Assembly (NCBI GenBank): GCA_964237255.1
Contig: CAXSIG010000001.1
Span: 1 to 41,937, forward strand
Length of the DNA: 41,937 nucleotides
DNA from: an uncultured Bryobacteraceae bacterium
GTDB lineage: Bacteria > Acidobacteriota > Terriglobia > Bryobacterales > Bryobacteraceae
Direction: 5' to 3'
Below are positions 2,298 to 32,480 of this stretch, piece by piece. The notes under the pieces are model-generated. The model did no database searches and was not told where the DNA came from. It saw only the letters and a list, made by a program, of their open reading frames with translations. Both the position numbers and the translations under genes were made by a program. The first letter of the stretch is position 1; each line of letters opens with the position of its first letter.

Positions 2298-5200
2298 TCA
2301 CCCCAGGAACCGTTCCTCGTTTCGGATTCTCCAAAGGCGGGCCTGTGTTTCGCCACGAACAACTTCATGGTCTGCCCATCGTCGAATTGCAGATAGCGAA
2401 TGTGTTTGAAACACACGTGCTCTGTCTGCCTCTGTTTGGTGGGTCTCAGCAATATCCCCTGAATACATCTGAAACCGGTGAGTCGCGACTACAAAGCGCT
2501 CAAAGACAGACTCGTCATCGCCCCAGTTTGTAAGAACGTACTCTGTAAGAGGATGTACGGTCGGTTCTTGACTGGCATTAACAGAGGGCGAGAGCAAAAA
2601 TGTGGCAACTGCCCTTGCTCCTTCAATGCCTGTATCAGTCAACCACTGTTTTACCGCTTCCAAAGGCAGAATCTGAAACAGACCCGTGTACTTACCCATT
2701 TGAAGCCGCCAACCCAGTGTTTCGTCCAACAACACTATACCGATTCGTTCCAGAACCAGAACAGAATGCGTCGTTGCCAAAGAAGAAAGAATATTCCAGG
2801 AGTGATTTCGTTTTTCATAATCCTCGCCTGTCAGACCTATGATCGCTACTCTGCACGCTTCGTCTGGATCTTCGAGTGAAAACGTTTGAAGAGCTTTCGA
2901 CCACCAGTAATCCGCCCTATCGTCAACCGGTGCACTAGCTTCTAACACCTGCCACATTGTTTGTCGCTCCTCGGCGTCAAATGGCCTGTTTTTATGCACG
3001 GCAGTGCCGACGAATCGAACAGCTATCTCAATGCTGTGAAGATCTCCAGCTCCAATCAGTAACTTTAAAACGGTCACTACGTCCGCCGGCGTCATTCGAT
3101 CAAAGAGCACCCCTGGGACAAAATTTCGAAGTGCATAAATGGACAACCTTTGCCTCGCTATGAGCCGAAGGGTACGTTCCAGTGCGCGGCTATGCTCAGG
3201 GGCTGAAAGGGCCACCCTATACGCTATTTCGGGGGCTTCCCCTTCGAGACGGTCGAGTAAGATATTGAATTGTTCTGACGGAGCAGAGGAGATAGTTAGT
3301 AACCGATCAATATACCCGCAGGCTAGCGCACTGGAGCCACTTGCTGACGCAGCGTCAAATATTCGCTCCATGTACACAACACCGTTACCTAGACTTGCAA
3401 GCGCCTCACCAACTAGAGAGGCGCTTGCTGCTTCTGGAGAATTGAGATAGGGCAACGCCTGCTCAAAAGTATTGAAATCGAGCGACATTTCTTCAGCGAG
3501 GTGAATAATCTCCGGGGGAAGACCTGGGGCAACGCCTTCTCGCAAAGAATGATGCCACGGCGCTTTGCCGACAATTGCCTTCATTTTCCCTAGAAACTCT
3601 CTCGGCGTAAGCATTTGTAACCACTCAAGTGCAGCGAGGCATGGCGGGTATTCCGCAGCGCTCCCCGCGTTTCCGCACTCATATTGAAGAAAGTCCTCTA
3701 AGGATTCGAGTAAGTTCGGAAGATGGACATCCGGAACCGGGTGGCGTTGAGTCATCTCTCTGAGGGTGGGGAACATTTCATTCGACAACAAATAACGAAG
3801 ATATTTCGAAATCACTTGCCAGGTCTTTTTGCAACTCTCAGTAGTCGCCTCTTCGAGAACCTGCTCGAAAAGCGATAGGACCGATTTTAAACAGTTCTGG
3901 AATTCCTCAAAATCTCGAGGTCTCCAATCCGGTGGTACAAGTTGGCCCGCTACAATAGCAGGGCCGACGACTTTTGTTCCGTGCGAGTTCAACGTTTCTT
4001 CAAGCGCGCCAAGTGCGAGACGCCTTTCTGCTTCATCATTGGACCTAAGCACTCTTTCGAGAAGTTCGATGCGTTCAGCGAAAGGCGTTGCAGAGCCGGA
4101 CAGTTGAATCCTGAACAACTCTTTCCATACTCCCGTTGCATTGTTCCCGATTGATTTCTCAGTTTCTGCTAACGCTAGGCGACGGAGTATTTGCTCGCTC
4201 TGCGGAAAATATTTAGGAATGGCCGCCAGTCGTTCTGCCGTCCATACTAGTCGTCTTCGGCTACCATGCCGTCCTAAACCACCTTTGGTCTCGAACAGTT
4301 CCGCTATTTCCGCCTCGTTAACCAGCGTTACTAAGCGGGGAAAATAGCGATCTGGATCCGTGTTGATTAACACCGCCAGTCGATCAACGACTTCCTCGTC
4401 TGCTAAATCCAGTGATCTTAAATTCGTTACAGATGTCCAAAAAAAGGTGCCCGTGCGGGCTCGAACCTCTGAAGAGGCGCTGCTTGCAACCCGGGCCTGA
4501 AAAGCGGGCAAGAGCAATGGTGGAATCTTACGAAGAAAAGAATCTGGATCATCTCTGATCCACCTACGCCAGGCATTCTCGAATGCGATGCGCGCTATGA
4601 TTTCAGGTGTTATGTAGTAATAACGGGTTGTTCGCGCGACAAAGCCAGGGGTATCGGTTAGCGCAGCGGCCGTTTCACGAACATGTTGCGGCACGTGACC
4701 TGTCAATTCACATAAAGCTTCAAGCTCGTCGGAAACACCCTCGCCAAACCCTACCTTTGAGAGAAGAGACAACGCTTCTATAGCACTCCGGGCCTTCTCG
4801 TCTCGGAAGCGATCCAAGTAATAATCCTGTACGGTAGCTAGACCAGGTCCTAAATCTCCCCTAGATCTAATCTCCGGGTCGTTGTCGCACAAGTCCGCCG
4901 CGAACCTAATGTAGCCGCCAGAAAGCTGGGCGTAGGCGCGGCGTCGATCTGACGAAACAAGGGGAAAGTTTTCTGCTAACACCTGCTCGACGCTTGCTGA
5001 GGACAATTCCTCCAAACGCAGCTCTCCGTCTTCTCCAATCGGTCGTTCACCAGAATTGTCAATGCAAATAACTCGAACACGCTCACTATGGCCGTTAAGA
5101 AGTTTGCCAATGTTTAAACGAGACGTAACAGTACATTCGTCAGCTACCAAAATGCATCGAGTCTTCTGGTCGTTGGCTAATGATCTCGCCACGTTTTCGG

Positions 5201-5975
5201 CGTCATCATCTTTCGTATACAACACCAGGTGTCCAGCGCCGTTTAGACCACGGATTACTTCATACACAAGTCTTGTCTTCCCTACCCCGGCCATTCCCTG
5301 CAAAGGAAGGGTAACCCGGCGGGTTGGCTGTCCGAAATCGATGTGGCCTCTAAGTAACGCTGTCTTGCCGGTCCACGCCTCCAAAGGAACAAATGTTGGG
5401 GTGACTCTGGTAATGTTTCGTGACCACGCATCAAAGAAAAGGACACGGTTGAAAGTGACCTTAAAGTGAGCTGCGAGGACTGCTGGATAGCGATTTGCCC
5501 AAGAAGCTAACTGTGAGGCCGTCACCACACACACTAACGGAGACTCCGGATTTATTCTCCGAGCGTGCTCTGTAAGAACCCCTGCCCATTCTTTCTGTTT
5601 CTCAGGTGGCATGTCGTCACAGATCGCGAGTCGATAGGCATAGCCCTCCGTGATCAGCTTTTTGGCATAGGGTTTGTTCACCTCGTCAATAAGTTGCGAA
5701 TTTGAAACGTCTCTAAACAGCCGGGCCTTGTATTGCCAGCAAGTCCGTTCCAGGAGATAACCTGTCGGGTCACTTTGCATCCCAACCTGCACCTCAGTAT
5801 CAACTCCGCCATCAGAGATGTTGACGCGCAACGAGGTTAAGATGCGGGCTTCTCCTACACCGCAACAATATCCAGTCGCGCGGATAAGGGCGTCAACGAA
5901 TCCCGTAAATGGTGCGCCGCCGCCGCCCCGCAGCATAGTAAGGTCATTATGGTCAACCGTCCACATTTTCACCAT
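2298..5975 (-). CDS. STAND-type P-loop NTPase (1225 aa) with a PD-(D/E)xK-like N-terminal domain and a long helical-repeat C-terminus; Avs/NLR-like
   Basis: Walker A is LPLQGMAGVGKTRL and Walker B is CILVADEC. The N-terminus carries NISDGGVDTEV...CWQYK (a D...QxK nuclease-like motif). About 800 aa of alpha-helical repeat-like sequence lies downstream. Confidence 0.75.
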   Translation of the reverse strand: MVKMWTVDHNDLTMLRGGGGAPFTGFVDALIRATGYCCGVGEARILTSLRVNISDGGVDTEVQVGMQSDPTGYLLERTCWQYKARLFRDVSNSQLIDEVNKPYAKKLITEGYAYRLAICDDMPPEKQKEWAGVLTEHARRINPESPLVCVVTASQLASWANRYPAVLAAHFKVTFNRVLFFDAWSRNITRVTPTFVPLEAWTGKTALLRGHIDFGQPTRRVTLPLQGMAGVGKTRLVYEVIRGLNGAGHLVLYTKDDDAENVARSLANDQKTRCILVADECTVTSRLNIGKLLNGHSERVRVICIDNSGERPIGEDGELRLEELSSASVEQVLAENFPLVSSDRRRAYAQLSGGYIRFAADLCDNDPEIRSRGDLGPGLATVQDYYLDRFRDEKARSAIEALSLLSKVGFGEGVSDELEALCELTGHVPQHVRETAAALTDTPGFVARTTRYYYITPEIIARIAFENAWRRWIRDDPDSFLRKIPPLLLPAFQARVASSASSEVRARTGTFFWTSVTNLRSLDLADEEVVDRLAVLINTDPDRYFPRLVTLVNEAEIAELFETKGGLGRHGSRRRLVWTAERLAAIPKYFPQSEQILRRLALAETEKSIGNNATGVWKELFRIQLSGSATPFAERIELLERVLRSNDEAERRLALGALEETLNSHGTKVVGPAIVAGQLVPPDWRPRDFEEFQNCLKSVLSLFEQVLEEATTESCKKTWQVISKYLRYLLSNEMFPTLREMTQRHPVPDVHLPNLLESLEDFLQYECGNAGSAAEYPPCLAALEWLQMLTPREFLGKMKAIVGKAPWHHSLREGVAPGLPPEIIHLAEEMSLDFNTFEQALPYLNSPEAASASLVGEALASLGNGVVYMERIFDAASASGSSALACGYIDRLLTISSAPSEQFNILLDRLEGEAPEIAYRVALSAPEHSRALERTLRLIARQRLSIYALRNFVPGVLFDRMTPADVVTVLKLLIGAGDLHSIEIAVRFVGTAVHKNRPFDAEERQTMWQVLEASAPVDDRADYWWSKALQTFSLEDPDEACRVAIIGLTGEDYEKRNHSWNILSSLATTHSVLVLERIGIVLLDETLGWRLQMGKYTGLFQILPLEAVKQWLTDTGIEGARAVATFLLSPSVNASQEPTVHPLTEYVLTNWGDDESVFERFVVATHRFQMYSGDIAETHQTEADRARVFQTHSLSAIRRWADHEVVRGETQARLWRIRNEERFLG

Positions 5976-6233: not shown

Positions 6234-7364
6234 TTAAATTGGACCTGCAAAGCGGCCGCTTCCTACACCGGGGGCGATGTCTGAGCGCCATAGCTGCTGC
6301 TCCTCTAAAAGAATTTGGTTCTCGGGATCAGCCGCAGTATTGTACTTGGCTATCACCTCCTCCAGCACGCCAGCATCTTTTGAAATTACGTCACTCGCGT
6401 TATAAAGCCAGCATGGGTGAACTTCCGCGCCATTTACTGCGAGTTGGTACACAATTGAGGTGACCATAGACTTGCTCAGGTGTTCAATGGAATACGCGAG
6501 ATCGGGCGGAAGGGAATGAGCGTACCTGTTCATGACGCGATCAATCGCCTCTAAAAATTTATGGTGCTGAGATCCTACCCACTGGCCCCAGGATAGCGGA
6601 GAGGTGACGGGGGCTGGCTTGGAAAAGTCTAGAAAACGCAGCTCTTGAGAAAAGGATGGACTAGAAAGAAAAGCGTGTACAGACCCAAAAGTCTGTTGGA
6701 TTGGGGCTGCGGCTTTGTACATACTAAACAACAGTTCAAGATAGCTGCCGAGCGGCCCTTGTAACGCTAAAAGAGCAGCCGGTAAAAAACTGGATCGAGG
6801 CAAGCCTTCGTCCGTCGTTGCGGATTTCGAATGTTGCCAGACATCTAGCAGGAAATTGGTCAAATCATCATCAATTACGCGCGTAAAGTCGGTAGGTCCG
6901 TTATACTCGCTCCACATACCAGGTTTAGGAAAGCCTTCCTTGAATTGCAACACTTGCCCGAGCTGGACGATTTCATCCTTGGTTCTTGGATTACAAGGCG
7001 CGCTGTTGAAGTAACAGAAAATCTGTGGCGTTCCGTTTTTTTCCCACGCTTGGAAAGCTCTCTTGAACTCATGCTCTGTGCCGGATTGAGACTCATGGGT
7101 CGGAGTGCCAAACCGGCACCACATCACGACAATCACTGCATCGTAATCTTCGATGTGAAGCTTCGAATCTATTAGACCTTGTGGCCCTTCTGGATGAAAC
7201 CCGGGGTATACATCGGTCTCCCAACTTCTAAGCTGGATCACAAAGCCGAGCCGGTCCGCTAGAACTCCATTTAACCGAGCTATGGTTGCGCGGACAGCCT
7301 GTCGCTCCGTCGCCACGTCGCCGGGCGAGGCGATCATTATGTTCAGTTCCCGTTTGGTGTTCAT
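6234..7364 (-). CDS. DUF4062/TIR-like N-terminal domain protein, upstream of and co-oriented with the STAND NTPase
   Basis: Motifs are NIMIASPGDVATERQAV, YDAVIVVMWCRFGT and SGTEHEFKRA...PQIFCYF, matching the DUF4062 pattern. The ORF track extends to 7445, but ATG 7364 (MNTKREL) is more plausible. Confidence 0.6.
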   Translation of the reverse strand: MNTKRELNIMIASPGDVATERQAVRATIARLNGVLADRLGFVIQLRSWETDVYPGFHPEGPQGLIDSKLHIEDYDAVIVVMWCRFGTPTHESQSGTEHEFKRAFQAWEKNGTPQIFCYFNSAPCNPRTKDEIVQLGQVLQFKEGFPKPGMWSEYNGPTDFTRVIDDDLTNFLLDVWQHSKSATTDEGLPRSSFLPAALLALQGPLGSYLELLFSMYKAAAPIQQTFGSVHAFLSSPSFSQELRFLDFSKPAPVTSPLSWGQWVGSQHHKFLEAIDRVMNRYAHSLPPDLAYSIEHLSKSMVTSIVYQLAVNGAEVHPCWLYNASDVISKDAGVLEEVIAKYNTAADPENQILLEEQQLWRSDIAPGVGSGRFAGPI

Positions 7365-7517
7365 GATAAGGGTAGTCTCAGTTGCGGTTACTGCAATCAT
7401 GACATCGGATATCAAGAGGCTCGCTGGCGGCGGAACAAAAAGCACAAGTGCTGGCAGCGATGGCGTGAAAGGGTCTTCAGTTGATCGAGCAAGCTGAACT
7501 CCCTAGCGCGGGAAGAT

Positions 7518-8495
7518 ATGATTGCTCAAATGGCTGACCCCTCTGATAAGTCGCACGACCTGTTAGATTTTCTTCAGCAGACGAGCAACGAAATGGCTTC
7601 GGAATACACCCGTATCCAGAAGCGTGCCACGGAAGATCCAGGAACAGCCGGTGACCAAGGCGAAGAGAATTGGGCACACGTTTTGCGTGAATGGTTGCCG
7701 CAGTCCTATCACGTTGTGACAAAGGGCAGGATCATCAGCCAACAAGGAAAAACCAGCCCTCAAATAGACGTTGTTATCTTACGGGGCACATATCCTCGAG
7801 CGCTTCTCAACAAAAAGCTGTACCTCGCAGCGGGTGTTGCAGCCGCGTTTGAATGCAAGGTAACGTTGAAGGCTTCCCATGTAAAAGAGGCGGTCGAGAA
7901 CTGCACCAACATAAAGAGCTTGTATCCCAGCCAACTGGGCACCCCGTATCAAGAACTACACTCCCCGATCGTCTATGGACTTTTGGCGCATTCGCACTCC
8001 TGGAAGAATGAAGGATCTACACCGGAAAACAACATCGAATCAAAGCTCCGTGAGGAAGATCTTCGAAATGTAAAACACCCACGGGAACATTTGGATTTGT
8101 TGTGTGTCGCTGATCTGGGCACCTGGTCCTCTACTCGGGTGACCTTCGCCAGCCCGAAGTTCATTAAGGAGTGGGCCGTGTTCGAACCGAAATATGGAGC
8201 TGATGGAGCGGCATCGAGTGGCTTTATAGGCAATACGGCCGTTGTCAGCAATCAAGTAGATCAGTTTTCTCCAATTGGGGCATTCCTCTTTTACCTAAGC
8301 CGGAAACTCGCCTGGAGAGATCCAGAACTGCGCAATCTTGCAGAGTATTTTGGAAACGTAAATATCGCTGGATCGGGTCAGGGAGACAGTAGGATATGGC
8401 CCACAACGATCTATAGTGATCAGATTCGGGGACGTGTCGAAGCGTGTTCTTTATCAGGCTCGGATTGGGATGAATGGGGTGTTCAGTTCTTGTGA
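7518..8495 (+). CDS. PD-(D/E)xK-type nuclease-fold protein (325 aa)
   Basis: Motifs are GDQGEENWAHVLREWLP, QIDVVIL and AAFECKVTLK (G-x-x-GE, D, E-x-K spacing). Confidence 0.55.
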   Translation: MIAQMADPSDKSHDLLDFLQQTSNEMASEYTRIQKRATEDPGTAGDQGEENWAHVLREWLPQSYHVVTKGRIISQQGKTSPQIDVVILRGTYPRALLNKKLYLAAGVAAAFECKVTLKASHVKEAVENCTNIKSLYPSQLGTPYQELHSPIVYGLLAHSHSWKNEGSTPENNIESKLREEDLRNVKHPREHLDLLCVADLGTWSSTRVTFASPKFIKEWAVFEPKYGADGAASSGFIGNTAVVSNQVDQFSPIGAFLFYLSRKLAWRDPELRNLAEYFGNVNIAGSGQGDSRIWPTTIYSDQIRGRVEACSLSGSDWDEWGVQFL

Positions 8496-8535: not shown

Positions 8536-9591
8536 TCACTCGGGCTTCTTATGTCCAGTGCGCCCAGAGGGTTCGATTCCCCCGAGCTTTTTGACTTCTT
8601 TCTCAAAGTCGCTGACGTAATTCCGATCTTCGGTCAGGCGGTACTTCTCGTATTCACCTTCTGCCAATGTCTTTGCAACTTCATGAGAAATCCTCCCAGC
8701 ATTTGTTAGGATTTCGTATTCGTTGAACTGAAGAAATGCGTCTAGCCGACCAATCCATTCGGTCATTCGCATCGGCACGCGGCGCGTGGCCTGAAGTTCT
8801 GCAAAGTCAAGATACATGGACACAATCCGTTCCAACTCTCGAAGTTCCTTCTCTTCCAGGTAGTTTTTTGCGACAGTCACGTCAGATTTTCTGATTCGGC
8901 CTTCAGAGGCTGTTTTCCAGGTAGTCAGGCCCATGTTTGGCTTCGACGAATCGGCACGTTCCGCAACGATCTCTGCGGCGGTCTTCCCGGTGATAGCCCA
9001 ATGTAATTTGTTCTGAACGGTCTTAAAAAACGTTTGCGTGATTTCGGCGTCTGCATCGTAATCGGTGCTGCATTGCTCGTAGATGTCCGTGATCTTGAGA
9101 TAAAAGCGCCGCTCACTTGCGCGAATTGCCCGGATCCGCTGAAGCAGTTCCTCGAAGTAGTCCGCTCCAAACTGCTTGCCCTGCTTTAGTCGCTCATCGT
9201 CCAAAACGAAGCCTTTCACCATGAACTCTCTAAGGGTCTTGGTCGCCCAGATTCGGAACTGGGTCGCTTGGAAACTGTTAACCCTGTAACCGACTGCGAT
9301 CACCATGTCCAGGCTGTAAAAGTCCACCTCACGGGTCACGTCCCGGCCGCCCTCCTTTTGAACTATTCGAATTTTTCGAATAGTTCCCTCCTCCGCTAAC
9401 TCCTTAGAAGCAAAGATCTCTTTACAGTGATAGTTGATGGTATTTACCTCGACACCGAAGAGTTCCGCCATCCGTCGCTGGCTCAACCAGAAGGTTTCTG
9501 TCTGATAGAACACCTCCACCCGGACCCCTCCATTTGGGGTTGTATAGAGAAGGATCTCGCTTTCTGATGGATCTTCGGCCATAATTTGCAC
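8536..9591 (-). CDS. rhuM: RhuM-family protein
   Basis: Full-length similarity to the RhuM pattern: ...FWLSQRRMAELFGV..NTINYH...AVGYRVNS..ATQFRIWAT..L....KGF..DDERLK... Confidence 0.8.
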   Translation of the reverse strand: MQIMAEDPSESEILLYTTPNGGVRVEVFYQTETFWLSQRRMAELFGVEVNTINYHCKEIFASKELAEEGTIRKIRIVQKEGGRDVTREVDFYSLDMVIAVGYRVNSFQATQFRIWATKTLREFMVKGFVLDDERLKQGKQFGADYFEELLQRIRAIRASERRFYLKITDIYEQCSTDYDADAEITQTFFKTVQNKLHWAITGKTAAEIVAERADSSKPNMGLTTWKTASEGRIRKSDVTVAKNYLEEKELRELERIVSMYLDFAELQATRRVPMRMTEWIGRLDAFLQFNEYEILTNAGRISHEVAKTLAEGEYEKYRLTEDRNYVSDFEKEVKKLGGIEPSGRTGHKKPE

Positions 9592-9683
9592 TCTGCCCAG
9601 GGATCGTCATGTTTGGCGCAAAGCGCACAAACGGCTGAAAAGGCCTCAGTTCACCCCGGGGCTATCGTAGCAGTCCCGCCATA

Positions 9684-9869
9684 TCAACAACTTTGAAATT
9701 GTCCAACAACCTGTTGGACATTTGGCTCTCCCGGCCAGGCTTCGGCAAGAGCCCTCATATAAATAAGGTTGGTCCGCCAGAGGCCCTTCATGTGGGGAAA
9801 CTCCGCACGTAAGTCTTTTGCTTTGGCAATTTGCCGGTGAACCCAGTCGATGGAACACCCTCCGGGCAC
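9684..9869 (-). pseudogene. N-terminal fragment of a DUF1016/YhcG-type PD-(D/E)xK protein
   Basis: DLRAEFPHMKGLWRTNLIYMRALAEAWPGEPNVQQVVGQ matches the conserved N-terminal region of that family. The rest of the ~350-aa protein is missing. Confidence 0.6.
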
Positions 9870-9944
9870 TTCGCGTTTTACGTTGGGCTAATGCGTTTTA
9901 GGGACTATCGGCTTCGCTCATTGCCATTTTGAACTCCTTAATTG

Positions 9945-10110
9945 ATCCTCGGCAGCCGAATGTCCTCTTCCTGAACCAATCCATTTTTTCGAACAGTTCC
10001 CCTTCCGCTTGCTCTTTGGAAGCAAGATCTTTTTAGTGTTAGTTGATGTATTCACTCTGACGCCAAACAACTCCAACATGCCTGACTGACAGAACCTTGC
10101 CACATCAAAG
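9945..10110 (-). pseudogene. degenerate fragment paralogous to the adjacent rhuM (approximate coordinates)
   Basis: It encodes ...MLELFGVRVNTSTNT... Its DNA aligns by eye to ~9370-9500 of the intact gene (aagatct.ttt..agtg.tagttgatg.tat..ac). Confidence 0.55.
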
Positions 10111-10325
10111 CCGATTTCAGCTTGGTGCTAATTGACGTGGAAAGTTGTTGATTTTCGGGGGGATTCACAAGGGGGGATTTAGCGGAGCGCTTTAAATCTC
10201 CTCTTGTGGGGGTAGCCGCTCGGGTTTGGCGGCGTAGGGGGAACCGTCCCTGCCCCGGCGTCCCCTTGAGGGGAATGAGAAAGGGTGGCTGGTTCATTGA
10301 AGGTTTCTTTGTCCAGGTCTAACAG

Positions 10326-10345
10326 AACTAAAGACATCTTTAGTT
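10326..10345. promoter_or_regulatory. parS-like palindrome, copy 2 (one central mismatch)
   Basis: aactaaagacAtctttagtt. Confidence 0.4.
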
Positions 10346-10439
10346 TCTCCTTTCGCTGAGCTACGGCTTCATGCAACAGATTGTTGCACAATTAGGTTTC
10401 CCCTTCCCTGCCCTGAATAGAACGTCGCCCTCCTCGTCA

Positions 10440-12146
10440 ATAGCCGCAAGCAGACATGGAGTCTGCACATTAACTGCTAGAAGCGTAAACGCGTGACTGA
10501 CGCTGTGGATGTGGGAGCAGCTCATCTGGAGTAGCTCGTTGCCAAACGAGCAAAAGGGTCTCGGCCTAACCAGCCGGGCTCTCTGAAAAGAGATGGAGCT
10601 GTACCCGTAGAGCCGGATGCATGGAGACATGCTTGTCCGTGCTCGATGGAGGCTCGCGGAAGTAAAGGCCTTTGTTCATGAGCACTAGCTCATCAATGAA
10701 GGAGCAATCTCCGCGTTCTATCCAATTGGCGCTTTGCCGCACCCCAGACGAATGGGGGCGACGGAGAAAGACCGTTGTCTTGCAGGTAAGCAGGGCGAGG
10801 CTTCCGGCCTCTTCCCTGCCCTAAAGCATGGCAATTGGCCATGGTGGTTTAAGTGGGTGATTCCGGCGAAGCCGGGGTAATCCCACACTGGGGGTTCAGA
10901 CCATTCAATGCTCAGTTGAGTGTGGCTGCGTTCTAAAGAACGCATCGGGTGGAAGTCCCGTAAGGTTTGTTCAACCAGTCTGGCATGGGGAGCTTCTGAC
11001 CTCGTAAGAGGCGGAACCGAGGGGGTGACTCCTTTCGGGTTGCGTTCGAAAATAACGCATCGTGAATAGCTCAACCAAAAAGCCCGTAAGGGCAAGCCAG
11101 TCAGTCCGGTCGGAGACGGTACCGAATCGCGACAAGCTGACGAACAGAGGGGTAAGGGAGTGCTTCTTAATTCGATTCCCTGAAATCGCAGTCTCTTAAA
11201 AGAGATAGCGGAAACTATGCTCGGACGGGAGTCCGAAGACATACTGGCGTCAGTTGGGGATCACATCCCCTAGCAACGTGACCGACCGAAAGGCTCTCCA
11301 AAACGGTAGAGCCTTTGAGACGTAGATCATCATTAATCCGGGAAGGAGACAGCGGCCGGAATGGTTTTCCGGTGCCTGTCATTGCAGTAGCGGCTAACGG
11401 TTTGAGGTTTGGCAGTAATGCCGTCTCTCGACCAGTAGCTTCTATGGCAGTGAGGTCAACAGGTGATTAAAAAGCTGCACTCTGGGAGTGGCGCTTCAGT
11501 AGAAGTTCTCGGAAAGAGAAGCGATGCTTCGGCAAGGTAGTCGAAGCTCGTCTCTGGTTCGGTTTGGCAACCGAGCGGCTCGTCTTTTGGGCGCAGAGCG
11601 ACGAAAGAGCGGACGGGTGTTTACCCGTATCCACAGCGTAACCCGGTGGAGAGTCTTTTAGGCTCTCTGCCGGTTCCTTTGGTCAGGCATCACAAGGCGG
11701 TTTTTGCGGAGCACCCTTGGCGGGGTGGTCCGCAAAAATTGCGTTTCGAGCGGTAACGGCACCCTTGCGTCTTGAGCTTGGGGTTAGCGCGAAGTCCGTA
11801 AGGAATTCGTTTCGGAAACGAAGGTTATCGTTCGAAAGGTTGTGATGATCGGGTGACCGCTACCACTAGGTATAGGCAACCTCAAATTAATGAATTAAGC
11901 GCACCGCAGGTGCGTCTTCGTTTTGCGCTTTGCCACGGGAGGGGCAAGAAGCGAAAAACCTGCGGCTTCGGAGCTGGTTCAAAGAACCAGTTACGAAAGT
12001 CGCTCTTGTTCGGCAAGTTGCTATGCAGCTTACCGAACTCGTGGTTCAAAGATTTTGAGTGCTGAACCACAGTGGGCCGCAAAACCCCGCATCAAAAGGG
12101 TTTAAGGCTTCTGGAGAGTGTGCCATACAAACACTCTCCGTTTTTT
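10440..12146 (+). ncRNA. candidate very large structured ncRNA; the 5' boundary is uncertain and lies between ~10.4 and 10.75 kb
   Basis: There is no credible ORF. Hairpins with plus-strand-specific GNRA/UUCG loops are dense, for example 11000-11011, 11082-11093, 11411-11422, 11795-11804, 11506-11520 and 11525-11534. Longer helices lie at 11290-11315, 11701-11738, 11806-11822, 11974-11990 and 12041-12070. The segment ends in an intrinsic terminator. Confidence 0.5.
12113..12146 (+). terminator. rho-independent terminator
   Basis: ggagagtgt-gccatacaa-acactctcc, followed by g and TTTTTT (12141-12146). Confidence 0.75.
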
Positions 12147-12173
12147 GTTCTTTGCACGGCAGCTTGAGGTCAC

Positions 12174-12857
12174 GTGGAATACCGTTTTCTTGCAACTTCC
12201 CTCGAAGGATTCATCCAGCAGTTGGCCGTCGCCTATATCGCACGCGGATATTTCTTTTACGTCACAGGAGTCGTTCCCGAAGGGAAAGACCCCGCTGCAA
12301 TCGATAACAAGCTCCTCGACAAATACAACGTTCGGCTTTCGAAGTTTGCTCGGTATCGAAGGAAGAACCTGGGCCAAGCAAGCGTTCAGTACCTGAGGTT
12401 TGAAAAATTCTTCGTCTTGATAGCTACACATGGACTTCACAACTTTTTTGACGCGGAAGAGAACGGCGGTGAAGGTAGCCGGATTAAAGACGTTCGTCGC
12501 ACTCCGATTCGGTTTGCCGGGTATTCGCTTAGTTGCCGGCGTCGATCCGGGGCCGGTTCAACGCTCGTCTCCCACGTCAGGATTGAACAGGGCATCTATC
12601 TAGAAATCAGAGATACACTTATTGGACTCGCTTCAAATCGCTCGAAGGATTGGCTGGAAAACCAGTTTAAACACTTCCCCTTTGAGCCTTACGCGCCCAT
12701 CAGACGCCAGGCAGCAACAATCTATGCCCGCATCAACAAAGCCCGCGAGGAAGCCTCTCAGGAGCTTTTGAGCTCTTCCTGTTTGCGCGTTCGTCGAAAA
12801 GCTTGCAGCCCGTTTACCTCCACCAATAGCGATAGCTTAAAACTACTGAATTGTTAG
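12174..12857 (+). CDS. hypothetical basic protein (227 aa), GTG start
   Basis: A GAGG lies 5 nt upstream of GTG 12174, which is 28 nt after the terminator. I recognised no family. Confidence 0.55.
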   Translation: MEYRFLATSLEGFIQQLAVAYIARGYFFYVTGVVPEGKDPAAIDNKLLDKYNVRLSKFARYRRKNLGQASVQYLRFEKFFVLIATHGLHNFFDAEENGGEGSRIKDVRRTPIRFAGYSLSCRRRSGAGSTLVSHVRIEQGIYLEIRDTLIGLASNRSKDWLENQFKHFPFEPYAPIRRQAATIYARINKAREEASQELLSSSCLRVRRKACSPFTSTNSDSLKLLNC

Positions 12858-14651
12858 GTCGTCGTCTTCGACGAATTCCCCAATCGCTCTTAAGATCCTT
12901 GTAACCTCGGCATTCGCTAAAATCTGTTCTGTTTTGGTAATTGGTCGCGCGTGCATGGTGCATACTCGGACTGGCATAAGACGAAAGAACGACTCGCGAA
13001 TATTCTCCTTCCGCTGAAACACCTGCTCAAAGACTTCATTCCAGTTGTCGGCTTTTGTAATTAGTCCAGCATACTCTGTAAAGTCTGCATAGTGAATCAG
13101 CCTACTGGGTTCTACGCCGCTGGCAATATCCTTGTCTCTCTTTACCAACCACCCTTTATAGATTTCCCCATTGCCGTGGCAACGAGCCTTCTCCCAGTTC
13201 GTGCCGTATTTATCATTCATTACCCGGTCGATGTATATGCGCAGTTTTCGCTCAAACCGAAGAATGAGCCCGCTGACATCCGTGAGACGTCTTACAAGAA
13301 TTCCCTCTTCATCAATCGGCCTTACCTCCTCTTCTTCCGTAGGGTGACGGACTAGGCCGACATTACTAAGAGCTTCACTAAACGCTGGTTCTGGTAGGTA
13401 AACGAGACCAGGATCAAAACCCCGGTCCTCATAGAACTGTTCTCGGAGGTTTGAATCCGAAAGCATCCGCCAGGGCATTTTTACATCGCGCCAGTCGCCT
13501 AACGCTGATCGAATTGCAGAAACCGGCGAATTATCAAACGGGTTCACTATTTTCGCAGCAGCTGTTAATGAGGATAAGCCGATAAGACTGGCGACTGACA
13601 TGTCAGGTTTTAACCGATCGATCCAAGAGGTATCGATCTGTGCTGCGATAGCCTGCACTTTGGAGACACTAGGTAGGAACTTTTCACTGATGGAGTTGAT
13701 GTTTTCGAGAACCTTCGCAAAACGTACTGTATCGGATTGTTCAAGGGCTCGAAAGTTGGCTAACGTTTTATCCAGGTTCCACGGTTTTGTACCCAACGGG
13801 TCACTGTTTGAGCCCTTAAAAGACAGAACGTCAGAAAACTGCGTTCCCCCTCCGATTAACCTGAGGGTACGATTGCGTTCACGGAGTGCCTCAATATCAA
13901 ACAGCTCGGCCAAAAACGATGTCCGCCGTTTTGCTAACGACAAAAGCGCGTTCTCCCGGAAGTCCAGCATCCGTTTTGTCAACTCCGACATTTCTGTTTC
14001 CCTGGAAATTGGAAAGGGTCTTTGACTCGCGAGGGCTTTAGCCATCGAGAAAGCAGTGTTCTCAAATCGTCGACGTGCATCGTTCATTGCCACCGCGGCA
14101 AGGTTTGCAGTCTCAGAAAACATAGAGTGGTGTTTACAAATCTCGGACTGGAAATCTTCTAAGGAGCAAACGTCGATTGAGACCAGCTTTCCGTGCCTGA
14201 AGTTGTTCCACCACTCAATGCATACCTTCTCCAAAACCTCTTCAGGCCAGAGCTCCAGTTCCTCTGGCTTCAGAAGTGGCTCTGTCGCCAAGTAGGCAAG
14301 AAGGTTCTCTGCAAAAGCTCGCGGAGGCAAATCCTTGTTACAGAGCGGTGAAATCTCTCTGCTATCTTTCATCGTCGTCCCTGTTCTAAACCGAATAGGG
14401 CCATAGTCTCCTGCCGTAATGTCGAAATGTGCCTTGATTCTAAACGGAGCTTTTTGAGGTGTTTCGCTCATACTTTTCACTAGTAGTCTTTCGCCTGCAA
14501 ACACCCATCGTAAAGCAGCACCTGTCCTCTTGTAGCCACTTGTTCCAGTTTCGCTTGGAGCAGAACTAAAGACGTCTTTAGTTTCCCTTCCCTGCCCTTC
14601 AAGCTGATCAAAAATAAAGGCTTGCGCATCCTGTGTTATGCTGTAACACAA
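12843..14651 (-). CDS. HEPN-domain (Swt1-like) protein, up to 602 aa
   Basis: The C-terminus carries ...YGTNWEKA...YADFTEYAGLI...NW...RLMPVRVCTMHARPIT, with an R-x4-H HEPN motif. The N-terminal 60 codons overlap a parS-like palindrome, so the true start may be ATG 14471 (MSETPQ). Confidence 0.6.
   Translation of the reverse strand: MCYSITQDAQAFIFDQLEGQGRETKDVFSSAPSETGTSGYKRTGAALRWVFAGERLLVKSMSETPQKAPFRIKAHFDITAGDYGPIRFRTGTTMKDSREISPLCNKDLPPRAFAENLLAYLATEPLLKPEELELWPEEVLEKVCIEWWNNFRHGKLVSIDVCSLEDFQSEICKHHSMFSETANLAAVAMNDARRRFENTAFSMAKALASQRPFPISRETEMSELTKRMLDFRENALLSLAKRRTSFLAELFDIEALRERNRTLRLIGGGTQFSDVLSFKGSNSDPLGTKPWNLDKTLANFRALEQSDTVRFAKVLENINSISEKFLPSVSKVQAIAAQIDTSWIDRLKPDMSVASLIGLSSLTAAAKIVNPFDNSPVSAIRSALGDWRDVKMPWRMLSDSNLREQFYEDRGFDPGLVYLPEPAFSEALSNVGLVRHPTEEEEVRPIDEEGILVRRLTDVSGLILRFERKLRIYIDRVMNDKYGTNWEKARCHGNGEIYKGWLVKRDKDIASGVEPSRLIHYADFTEYAGLITKADNWNEVFEQVFQRKENIRESFFRLMPVRVCTMHARPITKTEQILANAEVTRILRAIGEFVEDDDLTIQ
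14564..14583. promoter_or_regulatory. parS-like palindrome, copy 3 (perfect 20 bp)
   Basis: aactaaagacgtctttagtt. Confidence 0.5.
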
Positions 14652-14701: not shown

Positions 14702-14899
14702 GTGGCGCAGGCAAAAACACCAAAAGCCCGAACGGGCGTCAGTCTTGATGTCGATGTGTTGGCGTACCTAGATGGGGTAGCAAACACCGACGATAGGGAC
14801 CGGAGCTACGTCATCAATCGCATCATCCGTGAATGGGCCCAGTCGAAAGGAAGTCAGATCCCAATCAGTAAAGAAGTGAGGCGTGGAAAAGCAGCCTAA
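14702..14899 (+). CDS. ribbon-helix-helix (CopG/Arc-like) protein
   Basis: GTG start after ggagaaggagg. GVSLDVDVLAYLD...SYVINRIIREW is a typical RHH strand-helix-helix. The ORF overlaps the rep start. Confidence 0.7.
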   Translation: MAQAKTPKARTGVSLDVDVLAYLDGVANTDDRDRSYVINRIIREWAQSKGSQIPISKEVRRGKAA

Positions 14900-16850
14900 T
14901 AGCGAACAAGGAACTTCAACTCCTTTTCAACGAACGAAACCTTTTCGGGGCTTCCCGGAATTTCGCTCGAACGTCCTCTATTGCCCAAAACAGTTCTTTA
15001 CCGTCGTAATCCCCCACTCCTCCGTTAACTGTATTCGCCTCGTTGCGTACATGCTTCGAAAGACCCTTGGTTGGGTTGATGAATCAGGAGAGCCGGTGCG
15101 GGAACAGCACACGGTCTCTTACCGGGAACTTGAAACAACAGCCGGCGTCTCCCATAGCAGGCTTCAAGAAGCGATTGAAGAAGCTCTCAAAGGAAAGTTC
15201 ATCCGCTGCACACAAGCAGCAAAAATTCAGAGCCAAGGCGTTCGTTCGCAGAGTGCTGCTTACGAACTTTCCTGGGATGAAGACCGCTATACGGATGGGC
15301 TTGAAGACTTTCACGGGTTCTACCTTCAACCGACGTACCTCGACCGCGAGGACCAGACAAGAATCGGGAGAAAGAACATCCCGAACATTTTCTTTGACTA
15401 TCTGATTCGAAATGAAAGCCGAAGAGTAATCCGGGTGGTCGGAACGCTTCTTTGGTACAGCATCGATTGGGGAAAGGGCGGGGAGCGGAAAGTTAGCGTT
15501 AGGAAAGCATTAAGAGACCTCGTTGAGCTAACGCACCTTGAACGCTCAAACGTCGTCCGGGCGCTTAATGAAGCGGAAAAGAAAGGCTACGTTGAGCGAA
15601 TCGAGAGAGGCGTCTTTGACCTCTCAGGGAAAAAACAAAGTAGCGCTACCGTTTACGGAATTCAGTGGACTAGCGAATACACCTATACCTACGACGGGCT
15701 TCCGGTCGAGATTGCAGAACGCTCCCAAAAAGCCACACAGCCTAATTTAGTCAACGCTCCCAAAAAGCCACACGGCAGTTTTTCCGGAACGCTCCCAAAA
15801 AGCTTCACGGAAAATGAGGCTGAACGCTCCCAAAAGGCCACACGGAACGCTCCCAAAAAGCCACACGAAGAACGCTCCCAAAAAGCCACTATAAGAATTA
15901 CTAAAAATACTAACTCTAAAACTCTTAACAGCAACAGCACTGAAGACTCCCCTGACCCGGAAACCGCTGCTGCTGTTTTAGAGCTTGTTGAGATTCTCTT
16001 TGAAGCAGGCTTCTTGAAAGCGGAAACCCCGGCAATTATCGCTGAAGCAACGGCTGCCGGGTCCCCTTCAGGCCAAACGGCAAAACAGGTAATACTTTCC
16101 CAAGTGGAGCTACTTCCAAGCCGAACTGCTTCTAAGAGTAAGCTCGGACTACTTCGATCCGCGATCAAAGGAAATTGGCCCGCTCCTGAGGGTATTAAAA
16201 AAACTAAAGACGTCTTTAGTTCTCCCGGAAAGTACTTTGCTGCAAGCTTTTACGCCGGCTATCACGGGAACTTGGATGCCCCGATAAGTGACCCTTCAGA
16301 GCAGGATTCGTCCGCGGGACAAACCTTTCTTGAAAAGCTTAAGACCGGTGAGCCTAGCGTAGAGAATGCCGGAGCGCTCGGTCGAGAGTTTGGAGCTTTT
16401 GTGGCAAAGAAGCACAGCGAAAAGCGGCAGAGCTTCCCTGCCCTAGTTCCTGCAATCCGTCAGTTTGGAGACGAGTTTTTTAGAAGACTAAAATCTGGTC
16501 TTGAAGAGAAGTTTCACTCTGAAGTTTCAAAAGCTCGCTCGCTTCACGTTGAAAAGTCTACCGGTGCTTACCAGGAATACCTCGAGAAAATTTTCAGCAG
16601 ACATGAGCATGAAAACAGCTTGCTGTTTCAAGAATTCTTTGCTGAAGAGGAACAATCGTTAGAGCCCATTCGAAAGAACCGCTTCGGACTTAATGTTGAG
16701 GCGGCGGTAAGAAAGTTCACGTCGCGAGAAAACCGACTTCAGCGCTTTGAAACATTCATTCGCATTTCAGGCTTCGCTAACGACGTGCTTGATTTCTGGG
16801 CTTGGGATCAGAAGCTGAACGAAGAACCATTTAATCAGGAAGAACTATGA
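14883..16850 (+). CDS. putative plasmid replication initiator (655 aa) containing internal iterons
   Basis: It sits between the RHH gene and parA, with ATGA-type overlaps. The N-terminal region is winged-helix-like. Six DNA iterons are embedded in a low-complexity linker (ERSQKAT/NAPKKPH repeats). Confidence 0.55.
   Translation: MEKQPNSEQGTSTPFQRTKPFRGFPEFRSNVLYCPKQFFTVVIPHSSVNCIRLVAYMLRKTLGWVDESGEPVREQHTVSYRELETTAGVSHSRLQEAIEEALKGKFIRCTQAAKIQSQGVRSQSAAYELSWDEDRYTDGLEDFHGFYLQPTYLDREDQTRIGRKNIPNIFFDYLIRNESRRVIRVVGTLLWYSIDWGKGGERKVSVRKALRDLVELTHLERSNVVRALNEAEKKGYVERIERGVFDLSGKKQSSATVYGIQWTSEYTYTYDGLPVEIAERSQKATQPNLVNAPKKPHGSFSGTLPKSFTENEAERSQKATRNAPKKPHEERSQKATIRITKNTNSKTLNSNSTEDSPDPETAAAVLELVEILFEAGFLKAETPAIIAEATAAGSPSGQTAKQVILSQVELLPSRTASKSKLGLLRSAIKGNWPAPEGIKKTKDVFSSPGKYFAASFYAGYHGNLDAPISDPSEQDSSAGQTFLEKLKTGEPSVENAGALGREFGAFVAKKHSEKRQSFPALVPAIRQFGDEFFRRLKSGLEEKFHSEVSKARSLHVEKSTGAYQEYLEKIFSRHEHENSLLFQEFFAEEEQSLEPIRKNRFGLNVEAAVRKFTSRENRLQRFETFIRISGFANDVLDFWAWDQKLNEEPFNQEEL
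15717..15890 (+). repeat. six direct repeats of ~21 bp (iterons), gaacgctcccaaaaagccacac
   Basis: Copies start at 15717, 15752, 15787, 15822, 15845 and 15870. Spacing is 35,35,35,23,25 bp. Confidence 0.8.
16202..16221. promoter_or_regulatory. parS-like palindrome, copy 4 (perfect 20 bp, inside rep)
   Basis: aactaaagacgtctttagtt. Confidence 0.5.
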
Positions 16851-17626
16851 AGGTCATCACCGTCTGTAATGCAAAAGGCGGCTGCGGGAAGTCCACAATT
16901 GCACTTAGCCTAGCAGCGTCTCTTGGCCGAACGCGAGGAAACAAGGTTCTGGTGATTGACATGGACCCTCAGGCCCAGGTCTCAGACTGGCTTCGGGCGA
17001 GTAACGGCTTAAGCATCGAGGGAACCCTGACTTCGGTCTTTCTCAGGGCTGAACGGCTTCAAGACATTGTTAAAGAGACCAGTATTCAAAACGTTTGGAT
17101 CGCACCTGGTTCTCAGCCGCTTGAAAGTATTAGCCATTCGATGACGGAACAGGATGGTTACGAATCGCTCCTAGCAGAGTTCTTAGACCAGCTTCCAAAC
17201 GGGGCATTTAACTATGTAGTGATTGATTGCCCAAATCAAATTTCTCCGCTGATGGAAAATGCAATCGTGCCAACGGACGTATTTGTGGTGCCGATTGAAA
17301 GCACAAAGGCGGTTGCTTCATACGCAAACTTCTTTGCTCTAGTTCAGAAGCTTCGATCGGACGGGAGCTACCGGATGCTTCACGTCTTGAACAAAATCAC
17401 TCTTCAAGGTGTGCGAAAGAGTATTTTGAATTTCATGAGCGAGGAAGGAATCCCGGTTGCAAAGACAGAAATTCGAGACTGCGGCTGGCTTGCCCAGGTA
17501 GACAGATACGGCGGTTCAATTTTTACGTACCGGCCAAACTCGAAGGGAGCGTCAGATATCCCGCTTCTTCAGCAAGAAATTTTGGCCAGCATTCGGCAAA
17601 CAGAACGTAAGGTCGCAAACGGATGA
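16847..17626 (+). CDS. parA: ParA-type partition ATPase
   Basis: Deviant Walker A is VCNAKGGCGKSTIALSLA. ATGA overlaps occur with rep upstream and with parB downstream. Confidence 0.9.
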   Translation: MKVITVCNAKGGCGKSTIALSLAASLGRTRGNKVLVIDMDPQAQVSDWLRASNGLSIEGTLTSVFLRAERLQDIVKETSIQNVWIAPGSQPLESISHSMTEQDGYESLLAEFLDQLPNGAFNYVVIDCPNQISPLMENAIVPTDVFVVPIESTKAVASYANFFALVQKLRSDGSYRMLHVLNKITLQGVRKSILNFMSEEGIPVAKTEIRDCGWLAQVDRYGGSIFTYRPNSKGASDIPLLQQEILASIRQTERKVANG

Positions 17627-18483
17627 GCGAGAACACTGCACCAAAGAACGAAGAAAGAGTTTCGCGGCTGGGGCTCGTTAAGAGCGGAGCCGCTTCAAAC
17701 ATCTCATTAAAAATGCCACGGAGAGGTAAGGTGACGGTTGATTTAGAAGCAATTGTTCCAGACCCAAGAAACGAGCGAAAAGCCTTTCGCGGAATTGACG
17801 AACTTGCAGCCTCGATTGCCAAAGTCGGTATTGTAGAACCGCCGACCGTTGTTCCTATGGATGACGGCCGCTACATGCTTACTACCGGGGAGAGACGGTG
17901 GAGGGCTGCAAAACAAGCGGGCCTAAAACAGATATCAGTCATTATCGGTGATCAGGAAGAGGAGAAAACTCGCCGCGTAAAGAGCCTCGTAAGTAACGTC
18001 CAGCGAGAAAATCTCAGCGCCCTTGAACTGTCCCAGGCCCTTCAGGAGATGAAGGAGGAGAACGGGGACATCAAAACAAACCGGGATCTCGCGGCTTTGG
18101 TTGGAAAAACCGAGCAGTGGGTAGGGCAGATTCTAAAACTTCTAAGCCTTCCTGAAGATATTCAGAATGAGATCCGCGGGGCGAGTATCGTCATTCCTTA
18201 CGAATCCGTTCTTCAGGTCGCACGGGCTGATGACGAGGCATCCCAAAGGGAACTTCTAAAGGAGGTTCTCTCGGGTGCAAGCGTTAGAGCTGTTCGGGAA
18301 CAAGCAAGGAGTTCAAAACCGGCCGCGAAAGGGGCAGGGAAGGGGAGTATCAATTCTACTCAAAAGATTGCAACGTCCAAAGGCTGGGTGATCATTCACT
18401 GCCAAAAGAAAAATGCGAAGAAGGAAGACTACGTCCTCTCGCTTACAGAGGCGCTGAAGGCTGCCCGGAAGCTTGAGGCCTAA
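17623..18483 (+). CDS. parB: ParB-type partition protein
   Basis: The ParB/Srx box is LTTGERRWRAAKQAGL, followed by an HTH region. Confidence 0.85.
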   Translation: MSENTAPKNEERVSRLGLVKSGAASNISLKMPRRGKVTVDLEAIVPDPRNERKAFRGIDELAASIAKVGIVEPPTVVPMDDGRYMLTTGERRWRAAKQAGLKQISVIIGDQEEEKTRRVKSLVSNVQRENLSALELSQALQEMKEENGDIKTNRDLAALVGKTEQWVGQILKLLSLPEDIQNEIRGASIVIPYESVLQVARADDEASQRELLKEVLSGASVRAVREQARSSKPAAKGAGKGSINSTQKIATSKGWVIIHCQKKNAKKEDYVLSLTEALKAARKLEA

Positions 18484-26056: not shown

Positions 26057-26198
26057 GGGGGTGCAAGGATGCACCCCGCGAAAACCCGAAGGCTGCCGCG
26101 ATGGCAGCCTGAGGACAGGAAGCCCGCGCGCCGCATCACCAATGGCCGTGACGGCCATTGCGGCGCGCAATACCGGGAGGCCCCCAGGATGGGGGCCA
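26057..26198. repeat. structured repeat family A, partial copy 1 (core only)
   Basis: It aligns to 26730-26872 and 28136-28278. Its hairpins are ggggtgca-agga-tgcacccc, ctgccg-cga-tggcag, and gcgcgccgc...aatggcc-gtgac-ggccatt-gcggcgcgc. Confidence 0.8.
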
Positions 26199-32432: not shown

Positions 32433-32480
32433 TGTGTTCGCCTTTTGGTCGTGCGGGTTGTTTTTAAAAAACAACCCCCG

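Follow-up and report, generated by a model that had tools for sequence, protein, structure and literature searches.

The plus strand of a 41,937-nt stretch of DNA from an uncultured Bryobacteraceae bacterium (contig CAXSIG010000001.1; the whole stretch is called the window below) encodes, between about 10450 and 12146, a large structured RNA that we assign, with a probability of roughly 0.9, to group II ribozymes of the circularly permuted (CP) kind, the class described by Roth et al. (Roth, Weinberg, Vanderschuren, Murdock and Breaker, iScience 2021; PMC8637638). RNAs of this class carry the intron domains (D1–D6) in the order D5-D6-D1-D2-D3-D4; their splice sites are reversed, with a short linker in between, and in vitro they yield a small circular RNA together with an RNA branched through a 2'-5' bond (PMC8637638). 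Back-splicing has been demonstrated for five members (PMC8637638), and structures have been described for the Comamonas testosteroni member Cte 1 (bioRxiv 10.64898/2025.12.30.696962). A literature search covering sources outside subscription journals found no work extending the class, or its associated protein AcpG, beyond the 2021 paper and the Cte 1 structures. The ribozyme class is already known; what is new is a divergent member from a large clade absent from the published set. Read 5' to 3', the window RNA consists of a leader, the 3' strand of D4, a P2 module, D5, D6, the 3' splice site, a linker, the 5' splice site, D1, D2, J2/3, D3, the 5' strand of D4 and an extension (Table 1). D5 and D6 (10610-10724) precede D1 to D3 (10759-11612) on one strand, and this permuted order is kept in 59 homologous loci. 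The total length is ~1.7 kb, with a core of about 1140–1190 nt reaching to ~11640.

D5 (full string GAGCCGGAU-GCAUG-GAGA-CAUGC-UU-GUCCGUGCUC) has its bulge five base pairs from the AGC triad; its upper helix covaries, and the D5 block is up to 86% identical among relatives. A relaxed Rfam scan matched the Intron_gpII model (RF00029) at 10608-10726 with 35 bits (gathering score 40; E = 1.6e-4). At the homologous site the same model scored 43.6–52.1 bits in 10 of 11 related loci, above the gathering score; the window copy scores lower because its D5 contains a bulged U and its D6 a large insertion. The branch region of D6 reads UUCU-A(10720)-UCCA-AU. Its A is invariant in 20 sequences, the flanking helices covary (helices 6 and 7), and so does the base pair next to the branch site (GC 9, CG 8, UA 3). 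A published D6 is of the same design, reading ..GUUCGACCC-AAUC (PMC8637638).

Between D6 and D1 lie the two reversed splice sites. The mapped consensus of the CP class is NU at the 3' site and GGGCG at the 5' site, with linkers of 15–86 nt (PMC8637638), and published members read GGGCGACAAGGAAAC and GGGCGACGCGGAAAG at the 5' splice site (PMC8637638). The window has AU and GGGCG, and its linker of 29 nt is within the published range; in 45 loci of the clade, linker length varied from 9 to 189 nt (median about 23). The clade consensus after the linker is GGGCGAY..GGA.A.AC. Six Verrucomicrobial loci (L072, L044, L032, L019, L065 and L038) have P2-D5-D6 with GGGCGAY not found within 400 nt downstream, which suggests a variant 5' splice-site motif in this sub-clade. 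A GUGUG at 10921, which would give a 194-nt circle, was considered as the 5' splice site and rejected: it lies in a window-specific insertion (10900-10960) not shared by 19 homologues, whereas the GGGCGAC at 10756 is conserved.

The linker is matched by a conserved terminal loop of D1 that holds exon-binding site 1 (EBS1): the five bases at the loop's 3' side pair with positions –6 to –2 of the linker, which form intron-binding site 1 (IBS1). Across 40 distinct loci, 52 pairs were formed at the two variable positions, against 34.5 ± 4.4 when linkers were permuted among loci (0/5000). This signal was confined to the register in which –6 to –2 faces those five loop bases; pairing was no more frequent than under permutation when 6-mers were searched without an anchor or when a 6-nt register ended at –1. 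D1 also holds many covarying sub-helices, including GTAA hairpins at 11000-11011 and 11082-11093, and a conserved motif, AUAGCUCAACCA, at ~11067-11078 with the published counterpart UAUAGCUCAAAC. In D2, the segment 11380-11457 is a window-specific insertion carrying the GTAA hairpin at 11411-11422, and D3 includes the GAAA hairpin at 11506-11520 and the UUCG hairpin at 11525-11534. The D3 motifs GAGUAGGA and UACGAAAG are also present in the published sequence. J2/3, which in the published sequence reads CUGGGAGAGUG, and the loop-E-like base of D3 resemble those of the published member as judged by sequence, without a statistic. Strings in common with published members are AUAGCUCAA, CUAAC.NGGGAAGG, CUGGGAGAGUG..GAGUAGGA (GAGUAGRA) and ACGAAAG.

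The helix 10603-10608/11613-11618 sits directly between D3 and D5, and an outer helix joins the same two strands further out (Table 1). Because both RNA ends pair in the place of D4, the permutation point is the D4 loop, and the P2 module is inserted into D4's 3' strand. The D4 loop is the site where canonical introns carry a protein gene; here, an acpG-like ORF (open reading frame) follows the permutation point. Pairing between the 5' and 3' ends was described for the published CP group II RNAs, in which the P2 loop reads UUGCCAA or CUGCCAA (PMC8637638). In the window, GCCA of the P2 loop (10541-10544) is complementary to UGGU of the D2 loop (11362-11365), a pairing that homologues are compatible with and that hardly varies among them. 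Homology to the published CP group II RNAs extends as far as 11639. At the other end, sequence shared by same-genome and cross-genome copies begins 76–126 nt upstream of the P2 module, equivalent to ~10390-10436 in the window. A conserved GCUAU-like motif at ~10436-10445 may be a –10 element; a sigma-70 promoter scan of 10200-12900 reported no site.

The structure of the RNA was supported by folding and covariation statistics. Fold z-scores of 200-nt windows on the plus strand ranged from –1.5 to –5.3 over 10501-12200 and were about 0 in both flanks, and the minimum free energy was –627.9 kcal/mol for the plus strand versus –531.9 kcal/mol for the minus strand (~96 kcal/mol better on plus). 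When a 20-sequence alignment of the whole RNA was analysed with RNAalifold, 234 of the 311 consensus pairs showed compensatory changes. In the P2-D5-D6 block, 97.9% of cells were paired, versus 74.5% in column shuffles and 34–44% with slid partners, and the covariation score was 0.589 versus 0.163 in shuffles, with 0/500 shuffles reaching the observed value. An earlier note on this DNA had proposed a large plus-strand structured non-coding RNA starting at 10440, and these values, together with homologue indels that do not follow codon length (see below), bear it out; the conserved RNA begins near 10450. The hairpins that it listed (10581-10592, 11000-11011, 11082-11093, 11411-11422, 11506-11520, 11525-11534 and 11795-11804) and its terminal hairpin with a U-run at 12113-12146 are all present. 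It was also right that the segment has neither a GUGYG 5' end nor a reverse transcriptase (RT) ORF; Rfam gave no match at gathering score. From about 9.6 kb up to the GTG at 12174 the DNA is free of convincing ORFs.

The gene downstream of the RNA also supported the assignment. AcpG (Thermus TTHC007) is a conserved protein often encoded beside CP group II RNAs and without known relatives (PMC8637638). Alignment by hhalign of the window protein family with a profile of ten AcpG sequences (Data S3, PMC8637638) gave a probability of 98.1% (E = 1.1e-13, 157 columns), and by this profile comparison the gene at 12174-12857 encodes a distant homologue of AcpG. When TTHC007 was compared on its own, it showed no detectable similarity to the window protein family, and tblastn of plasmids found no Thermus copy. 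Homologues of the window protein form more than 1169 protein clusters at E ≤ 1e-3, all without a name or Pfam domain.

Relatives of the whole unit were collected by scanning one genome per species, which gave 334 acpG-like loci; the 80 retained belong to Planctomycetota, Verrucomicrobiota, Acidobacteriota, Dehalococcoidia, Nitrospinaceae, Actinobacteria and others, and in most of them the ORF-free DNA upstream of the acpG-like gene is colinearly conserved. A covariance model of the clade's P2-D5-D6 block (R1) matched upstream of the gene, on the same strand, in 59 of the 66 acpG-like loci with at least 1.7 kb of upstream DNA (E = 6e-45 to 6.5e-5). The distance from module to ORF was 1.0–1.85 kb in 53 of the 59 loci (1445 nt in the window). 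In the others (L038, L032, L033, L065, L040 and L013), D5-D6 lies 2.4–5.9 kb upstream of the acpG-like gene; DNA may have been inserted there into the opened D4 loop, or RNA and gene may be unlinked.

Published CP group II sequences end shortly after UACGAAAG / ACGAAAG, the window equivalent of which is at about 11640 (PMC8637638). The remaining 3' third of the window RNA (11640-12146) could, as the earlier note offered as its alternative, be a cis-regulatory element in its own right, a leader or attenuator for the acpG-like gene that is closed by an intrinsic terminator. Such a leader would be compatible with a CP core, and we regard it as a real possibility, though on balance the lesser one. 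Its position beyond the 3' end of the published members fits, as does the terminal hairpin with its U-run, which leaves 28 nt to the start codon, too little to hold a separate promoter, and in the clade always stands 20–40 nt ahead of the ORF; the 2.4–5.9 kb between RNA and ORF in six loci is a further point in its favour. The predicted pairing of 11748-11753 with leader positions 10473-10478 (6 bp, 3 compensatory), on the other hand, would tie the extension into the ribozyme fold. Moreover, the top of the terminal stem and its loop (UUGUGCC...AAACAA) are conserved across the family while the U-run is kept only in part. Because the loop is conserved and the U-run is not in all members, the hairpin is a putative binding site rather than a plain terminator, and it may be more than a generic terminator: an attenuator of read-through, a protein-binding site, or both. 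A terminator scan did not report 12113-12146, the loop of which exceeds the scan's 8-nt limit.

Several results weigh against assignment to the CP class. Searches of the window with three published CP group II sequences by nhmmer and blastn gave no match, although two of the queries were incomplete (730 of 780 nt and 846 of 1139 nt present), which weakens this negative test. The clade model R1 found only fragments at E = 0.3–1 in Thermus pTT8, none of them significant. The Rfam group-II-D1D4 models had no match in the window even at E ≤ 10, and none at gathering score in 11 relatives. The P2–D2 pseudoknot is putative, since the loops scarcely vary, and the best IBS1 register leaves –1 unpaired, with the window's own EBS1–IBS1 duplex being only 4 bp. 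In addition, a scan of the whole window at gathering score returned no Rfam family, no CP-specific family was returned for the window or the pTT8 interval, and a scan at E ≤ 1 of the pTT8 interval presumed to hold the Thermus copy found nothing relevant. Because there is neither similarity to published sequences, nor a pTT8 match, nor an Rfam CP family, the proposed membership is based on architecture, short motifs and the protein rather than on a family-model score.

These same negatives leave some room for the reading of the earlier note, namely a categorically new giant structured RNA, larger than the named large non-coding RNAs and unrelated to group II introns. No Rfam family at gathering score, no sequence similarity to published CP group II sequences and ~500 nt at the 3' end without a counterpart in the published class would all be expected of it. 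We nevertheless consider it highly improbable. The note had reported no domain-V-type AGC hairpin, yet a canonical D5 lies at 10610-10644, inside the interval that it delimited, and D6 with its branch A, D1–D3, J2/3, the D3 motifs, EBS1–IBS1 and the NU/GGGCG splice-site motifs of the class are there as well, next to an AcpG homologue. It had added that a clear Rfam hit to a known family would make the RNA known rather than novel. The scan at gathering score gave no such hit; the relaxed scan gave Intron_gpII over D5-D6, and through this model and the literature the proviso applies in spirit.

The fit of D5-D6 to the general group II model, the missing RT ORF, as in degenerate introns, and the decayed ORF-free DNA upstream (9.6–10.4 kb) would be accounted for by a group II intron of the canonical kind, or by decayed fragments of two introns (the 3' end of one beside the 5' part of another) that came to adjoin by accident. 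An accident of this kind is very hard to reconcile with a D5-D6-linker-D1-D3 order that recurs with similar spacing in 59 loci of several phyla, with a linker end that covaries with a D1 loop, and with 5' and 3' ends that covary with each other. The 5' splice site is GGGCG, not GUGYG, the sole GUGUG being the one in the window-specific insertion at 10921, and no D1–D3 was seen upstream of 10610 and no D5-D6 downstream of 11640. That the region is protein-coding or a pseudogene can practically be dismissed: a 174-aa open frame does exist on the minus strand (10718-11242), which the earlier note took to be spurious, but it has no Pfam match, homologues have their longest open frames on other strands, in other frames and at other places, homologue indels are not multiples of three (lengths of 0, 1 and 2 modulo three numbered 67, 155 and 81), and substitutions in the helices are compensatory.

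For a CP group II ribozyme, the reaction of the window copy can be proposed by analogy with the experiments on other members. In the first step, the 2'-OH of A10720 would attack the phosphate between G10755 and G10756, and in the second the freed 3'-OH of G10755 would attack the 3' splice site after U10726. This would release 10727-10755 as a covalently closed circle of 29 nt and leave a branched, T-shaped RNA, in which leader-D5-D6 would be joined by a 2'-5' bond to D1–D3 and the extension. Read-through of the terminal hairpin would leave the acpG-like mRNA attached on the 3' arm of the branched RNA.

We propose that the AcpG-like protein is an RNA-binding helper of the ribozyme. Its AlphaFold2 model (predicted local distance difference test, pLDDT, 91.6; predicted TM-score, pTM, 0.83) had as best Foldseek match in the PDB a group II intron RT (8h2h_D, E = 1.5e-3), followed by the retron Ec86 RT (7v9x_A, probability 0.99, TMq 0.44), and also matched the G2L4 RT and the retron Eco2 RT; these scores are weak, with no match at E ≤ 1e-3 and TM-scores of 0.24–0.44. 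RNA-dependent RNA polymerases, telomerase and AbiA ranked after the RTs, and the viral library returned RNA-dependent RNA polymerases. Sequence comparisons gave no sign of RT ancestry: searches of the family profile against PDB sequences, of Pfam at E ≤ 10 and of NCBIfam were all negative, and hhalign against nine group II RTs gave a probability of 0.13%. The sole RT alignment by hhalign sets VQYLRFEKFFVLIAT on the YADD hairpin VNYVRYADDFIITGE; the family alignment has no YxDD, the equivalent hairpin reading LRF-xR-FFVLLATHG. No RVT_1 or other Pfam match was found in any ORF of 9.6–12.9 kb, and PADLOC matched the protein to no known defence family. A descent from an intron RT, by which the protein would be a shrunken, catalytically dead relic at the D4-loop position acting as a maturase-like partner, and the module an autonomous mobile or defence-island cargo spreading across phyla, is a tentative idea that we hold to be rather unlikely. 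If it were true, the origin of CP group II RNAs would be tied to an ORF-bearing intron opened in D4, and AcpG would gain a first structural classification.

Shared boundaries among relatives bear on mobility. Two copies in one Verrucomicrobiae genome have exactly 2262 nt in common at 96% identity, beginning ~125 nt ahead of the P2 module and extending ~190 nt beyond the ORF, and copies in different metagenome-assembled genomes have only the ~2.1-kb RNA-plus-gene unit in common. We infer that RNA and gene behave as a unit of ~2.1–2.3 kb that is duplicated and moves between genomes. The two copies of the Verrucomicrobiae genome (L044 and L072) share a further 706 nt downstream, displaced in L044 (6816-10774) by a ~4-kb insertion right after the unit, and the cultured planctomycete Tautonia sociabilis GM2012 carries two divergent copies (L010 and L078; 64–70% identity). 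In two relatives, a tmRNA gene (L041, 1087-1438) lies 3.3 kb, and a tRNA gene (L060, 2410-2483) 2.3 kb, upstream of the ribozyme. Such tmRNA and tRNA neighbours are typical of genomic-island integration sites.

Table 1. Positions of the parts of the RNA, of the adjoining gene and of other genes in the window
Feature	Position	Strand	Remarks
First conserved hairpin	10450-10466	+	GCAGAC-AUGGA-GUCUGC; marks approximate 5' end of conserved RNA; covaries in homologues
Outer D4 helix, 5'-end strand	10500-10516	+	pairs with 11624-11639; 16 bp, 14 compensatory; inverted repeat
CP-specific 5' module (P2)	10517-10602	+	closing helix 10517-10523/10596-10602; nearly all pairs compensatory (helices 1–4)
P2 hairpin	10534-10551	+	loop UGCCAA at 10540-10545
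Hairpin in 5' module	10558-10578	+	
GAAA hairpin in 5' module	10581-10592	+	window-specific
Inner D4 helix, 3' strand	10603-10608	+	pairs with 11613-11618; 6 bp, 3 compensatory, 98% canonical; immediately 5' of D5
D5	10610-10644	+	GAGCCGGAUGCAUG-GAGA-CAUGC-UU-GUCCGUGCUC; AGC triad, 2-nt UU bulge, GAGA tetraloop
D6	10647-10724	+	conserved internal loop GGCU/UUCU; bulged branch-point A10720, 7 nt before 3' splice site
3' splice-site dinucleotide AU	10725-10726	+	A and U invariant in 20 sequences; class consensus NU
Linker, predicted excised circle	10727-10755	+	29 nt, UGGCGCUUUGCCGCACCCCAGACGAAUGG; IBS1 GAAUG at 10750-10754
5' splice-site motif GGGCG	10756-10760	+	then ACGGAGAAAGAC; reads GGGCGAC-GG-AGAAAGAC
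D1	10759-11342	+	basal helix 10762-10765/11337-11340; second helix 10841-10849/11325-11333
EBS1 loop	11162-11174	+	GCUUCUnnnUUC; AAUUC at 11169-11173
D2	11345-11483	+	closing helix 11345-11353/11474-11483; hairpin 11355-11373, loop can pair with P2 loop
J2/3	11484-11490	+	GGGAGUG, purine-rich
D3	11491-11612	+	basal helix 11491-11496/11607-11612; loop-E-like AGUAGAAG / GACGAAAG at base
D4 stem, 5' strand	11613-11639	+	11613-11618 with 10603-10608; 11624-11639 with 10500-10516
Clade-specific conserved 3' extension	11640-12112	+	fold z –4 to –5; conserved within clade
Extension hairpin	11643-11673	+	
20-bp nested hairpin	11697-11742	+	18 pairs compensatory
Extension segment	11748-11753	+	predicted pairing with leader
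Conserved block	~11857-11880	+	CCGCUACCNCUAUGAAUUGG
Variable hairpins	11899-11915, 11974-11990, 12041-12070	+	
Terminal hairpin and GUUUUUU	12113-12146	+	9-bp stem (12113-12139), 9-nt loop; 8/9 pairs compensatory
acpG-like gene	12174-12857	+	227 aa, GTG start, ribosome-binding site GAGG at 12165-12168
Tyrosine integrase	1139-2233		
PD-Lambda-4_A-like	2298-5975		
PDC-S60-like/DUF4062	6234-7445		
NucC/PD-DExK-like DUF6602	7518-8495		
RhuM	8536-9591		
HEPN_Swt1	12843-14651		
MarR/AbiEi-like	14883-16850		
ParA/ParB	16847-18483		
Type IV secretion system (T4SS) coupling protein	22841-24502		
MPTase-PolyVal with ArdC-like N-terminus	31526-32430		
Pentapeptide-TIR	37886-39118		

With its integrase, T4SS coupling protein and defence-related genes (Table 1), the window as a whole resembles an integrative-conjugative element that includes a defence island. 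The roughly 850 nt that adjoin the ribozyme on its upstream side (9600-10440), where the earlier note had seen decayed gene fragments, are ORF-free and not conserved in homologous loci, with fold z-scores near 0 except on the minus strand of 10101-10400 (–2.8 to –3.4). Elsewhere, R1 matched a D5-like fragment on the minus strand at 32800-32823 (GGAUGCUUCGAGAGCUGCUUGUCC, in the context GUAGAUCCGGAUGC...UGCUUGUCCAUGG; E = 0.012), in a 1.2-kb ORF-poor gap between an ORF with an XRE-type helix-turn-helix and the ArdC-like gene. Its AGC triad reads AUC and its upper helix is mismatched, and a relaxed Rfam scan of 31900-33600 returned nothing; the fragment may be what is left of another CP or group II element, or a chance match. 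A direct repeat of ~390 nt (97–99% identity; 26484-26871 and 27890-28277, with a partial third copy at 26074-26197) is G+C-rich, contains long palindromes and flanks an ORF (26882-27745) that has no assigned function. The G+C peak of 0.63 at 26–27 kb is due to this repeat.

Few classes of large bacterial ribozymes are without an assigned biological role; CP group II RNAs are one of them, and the same holds for the circle, the branched RNA and AcpG, a protein that has had no recognised fold. The class now extends to a large unlisted clade, with >1100 AcpG-like clusters and the RNA upstream at 59 of 66 testable loci. The tight RNA–gene synteny, a D4 rebuilt around the position of the gene and a hairpin before the gene raise the questions of whether AcpG is maturase-like and RT-derived and whether the module is mobile. 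For annotation, the lesson is that the class has as a signature a sub-threshold Rfam D5-D6 match placed at the 5' end of a long structured stretch devoid of ORFs.

Among known systems, the OLE, GOLLD, ROOL and HEARO/omega RNAs resemble the window RNA in being large, highly structured and often located on mobile elements, but they lack D5/D6 and splice sites, and their Rfam models had no match in the window at E ≤ 10. Canonical group II introns (RF00029; group-II-D1D4) share far more with it: the AGC triad, 2-nt bulge and GNRA loop of D5, a branch A in D6 at a distance of 7 nt from the 3' splice site, a D1 scaffold with EBS1, J2/3, D3 and a two-step transesterification, which for the window RNA is predicted. 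They differ in that the domain order of the window RNA is rotated, which makes its splice sites internal and reversed. Canonical introns yield ligated exons and a lariat, whereas a small circle and a branched RNA are predicted here; their 5' end is GUGYG as opposed to GGGCG; and, unlike them, the window RNA has no RT/maturase ORF and interrupts no host gene. The RTs of group II introns and retrons show a weak fold resemblance to the AcpG-like protein, the gene of which lies at the D4-loop position where intron RTs are encoded. Intron RTs are about 420–600 aa long, compared with 227 aa for the AcpG-like protein, and its membership in the RT family, with an inactive palm fold derived from an RT, is a hypothesis. 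With AcpG, the protein shares a length of about 200–260 aa, a gene beside a CP group II RNA and the lack of a Pfam or NCBIfam family; it differs in the very large size of its clade.

The closest counterpart is the published CP group II class itself. D5 of the window clade is nearer to canonical introns than that of the published class, having the triad A paired and a 5-bp upper helix, and it passes the Rfam model that found nothing in the presumed Thermus pTT8 interval. The published set comes from Thermus, Firmicutes and Proteobacteria, whereas the window clade comes from Planctomycetota, Verrucomicrobiota, Acidobacteriota and others. In the window clade the acpG-like gene nearly always follows the RNA directly and on the same strand, while its orientation is variable in the published set. 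Published members total ~0.8–1.14 kb against ~1.7 kb for the window RNA and have no counterpart of the clade's conserved ~300–500-nt 3' extension and terminal hairpin; the core of the window RNA, in contrast, is about as long as the 1139-nt Thermus-type members. Common to both are the domain order, reversed NU/GGGCG splice sites, a short linker, a bulged branch A and internal loop in D6, a UN bulge in D5, a UGCCAA-type P2 loop, an EBS1 that lies in a terminal loop of D1 and pairs with the linker end, 5' and 3' ends that pair with each other, a purine-rich J2/3, a loop-E-like D3 base, the absence of an RT ORF and an adjoining gene of the AcpG family.

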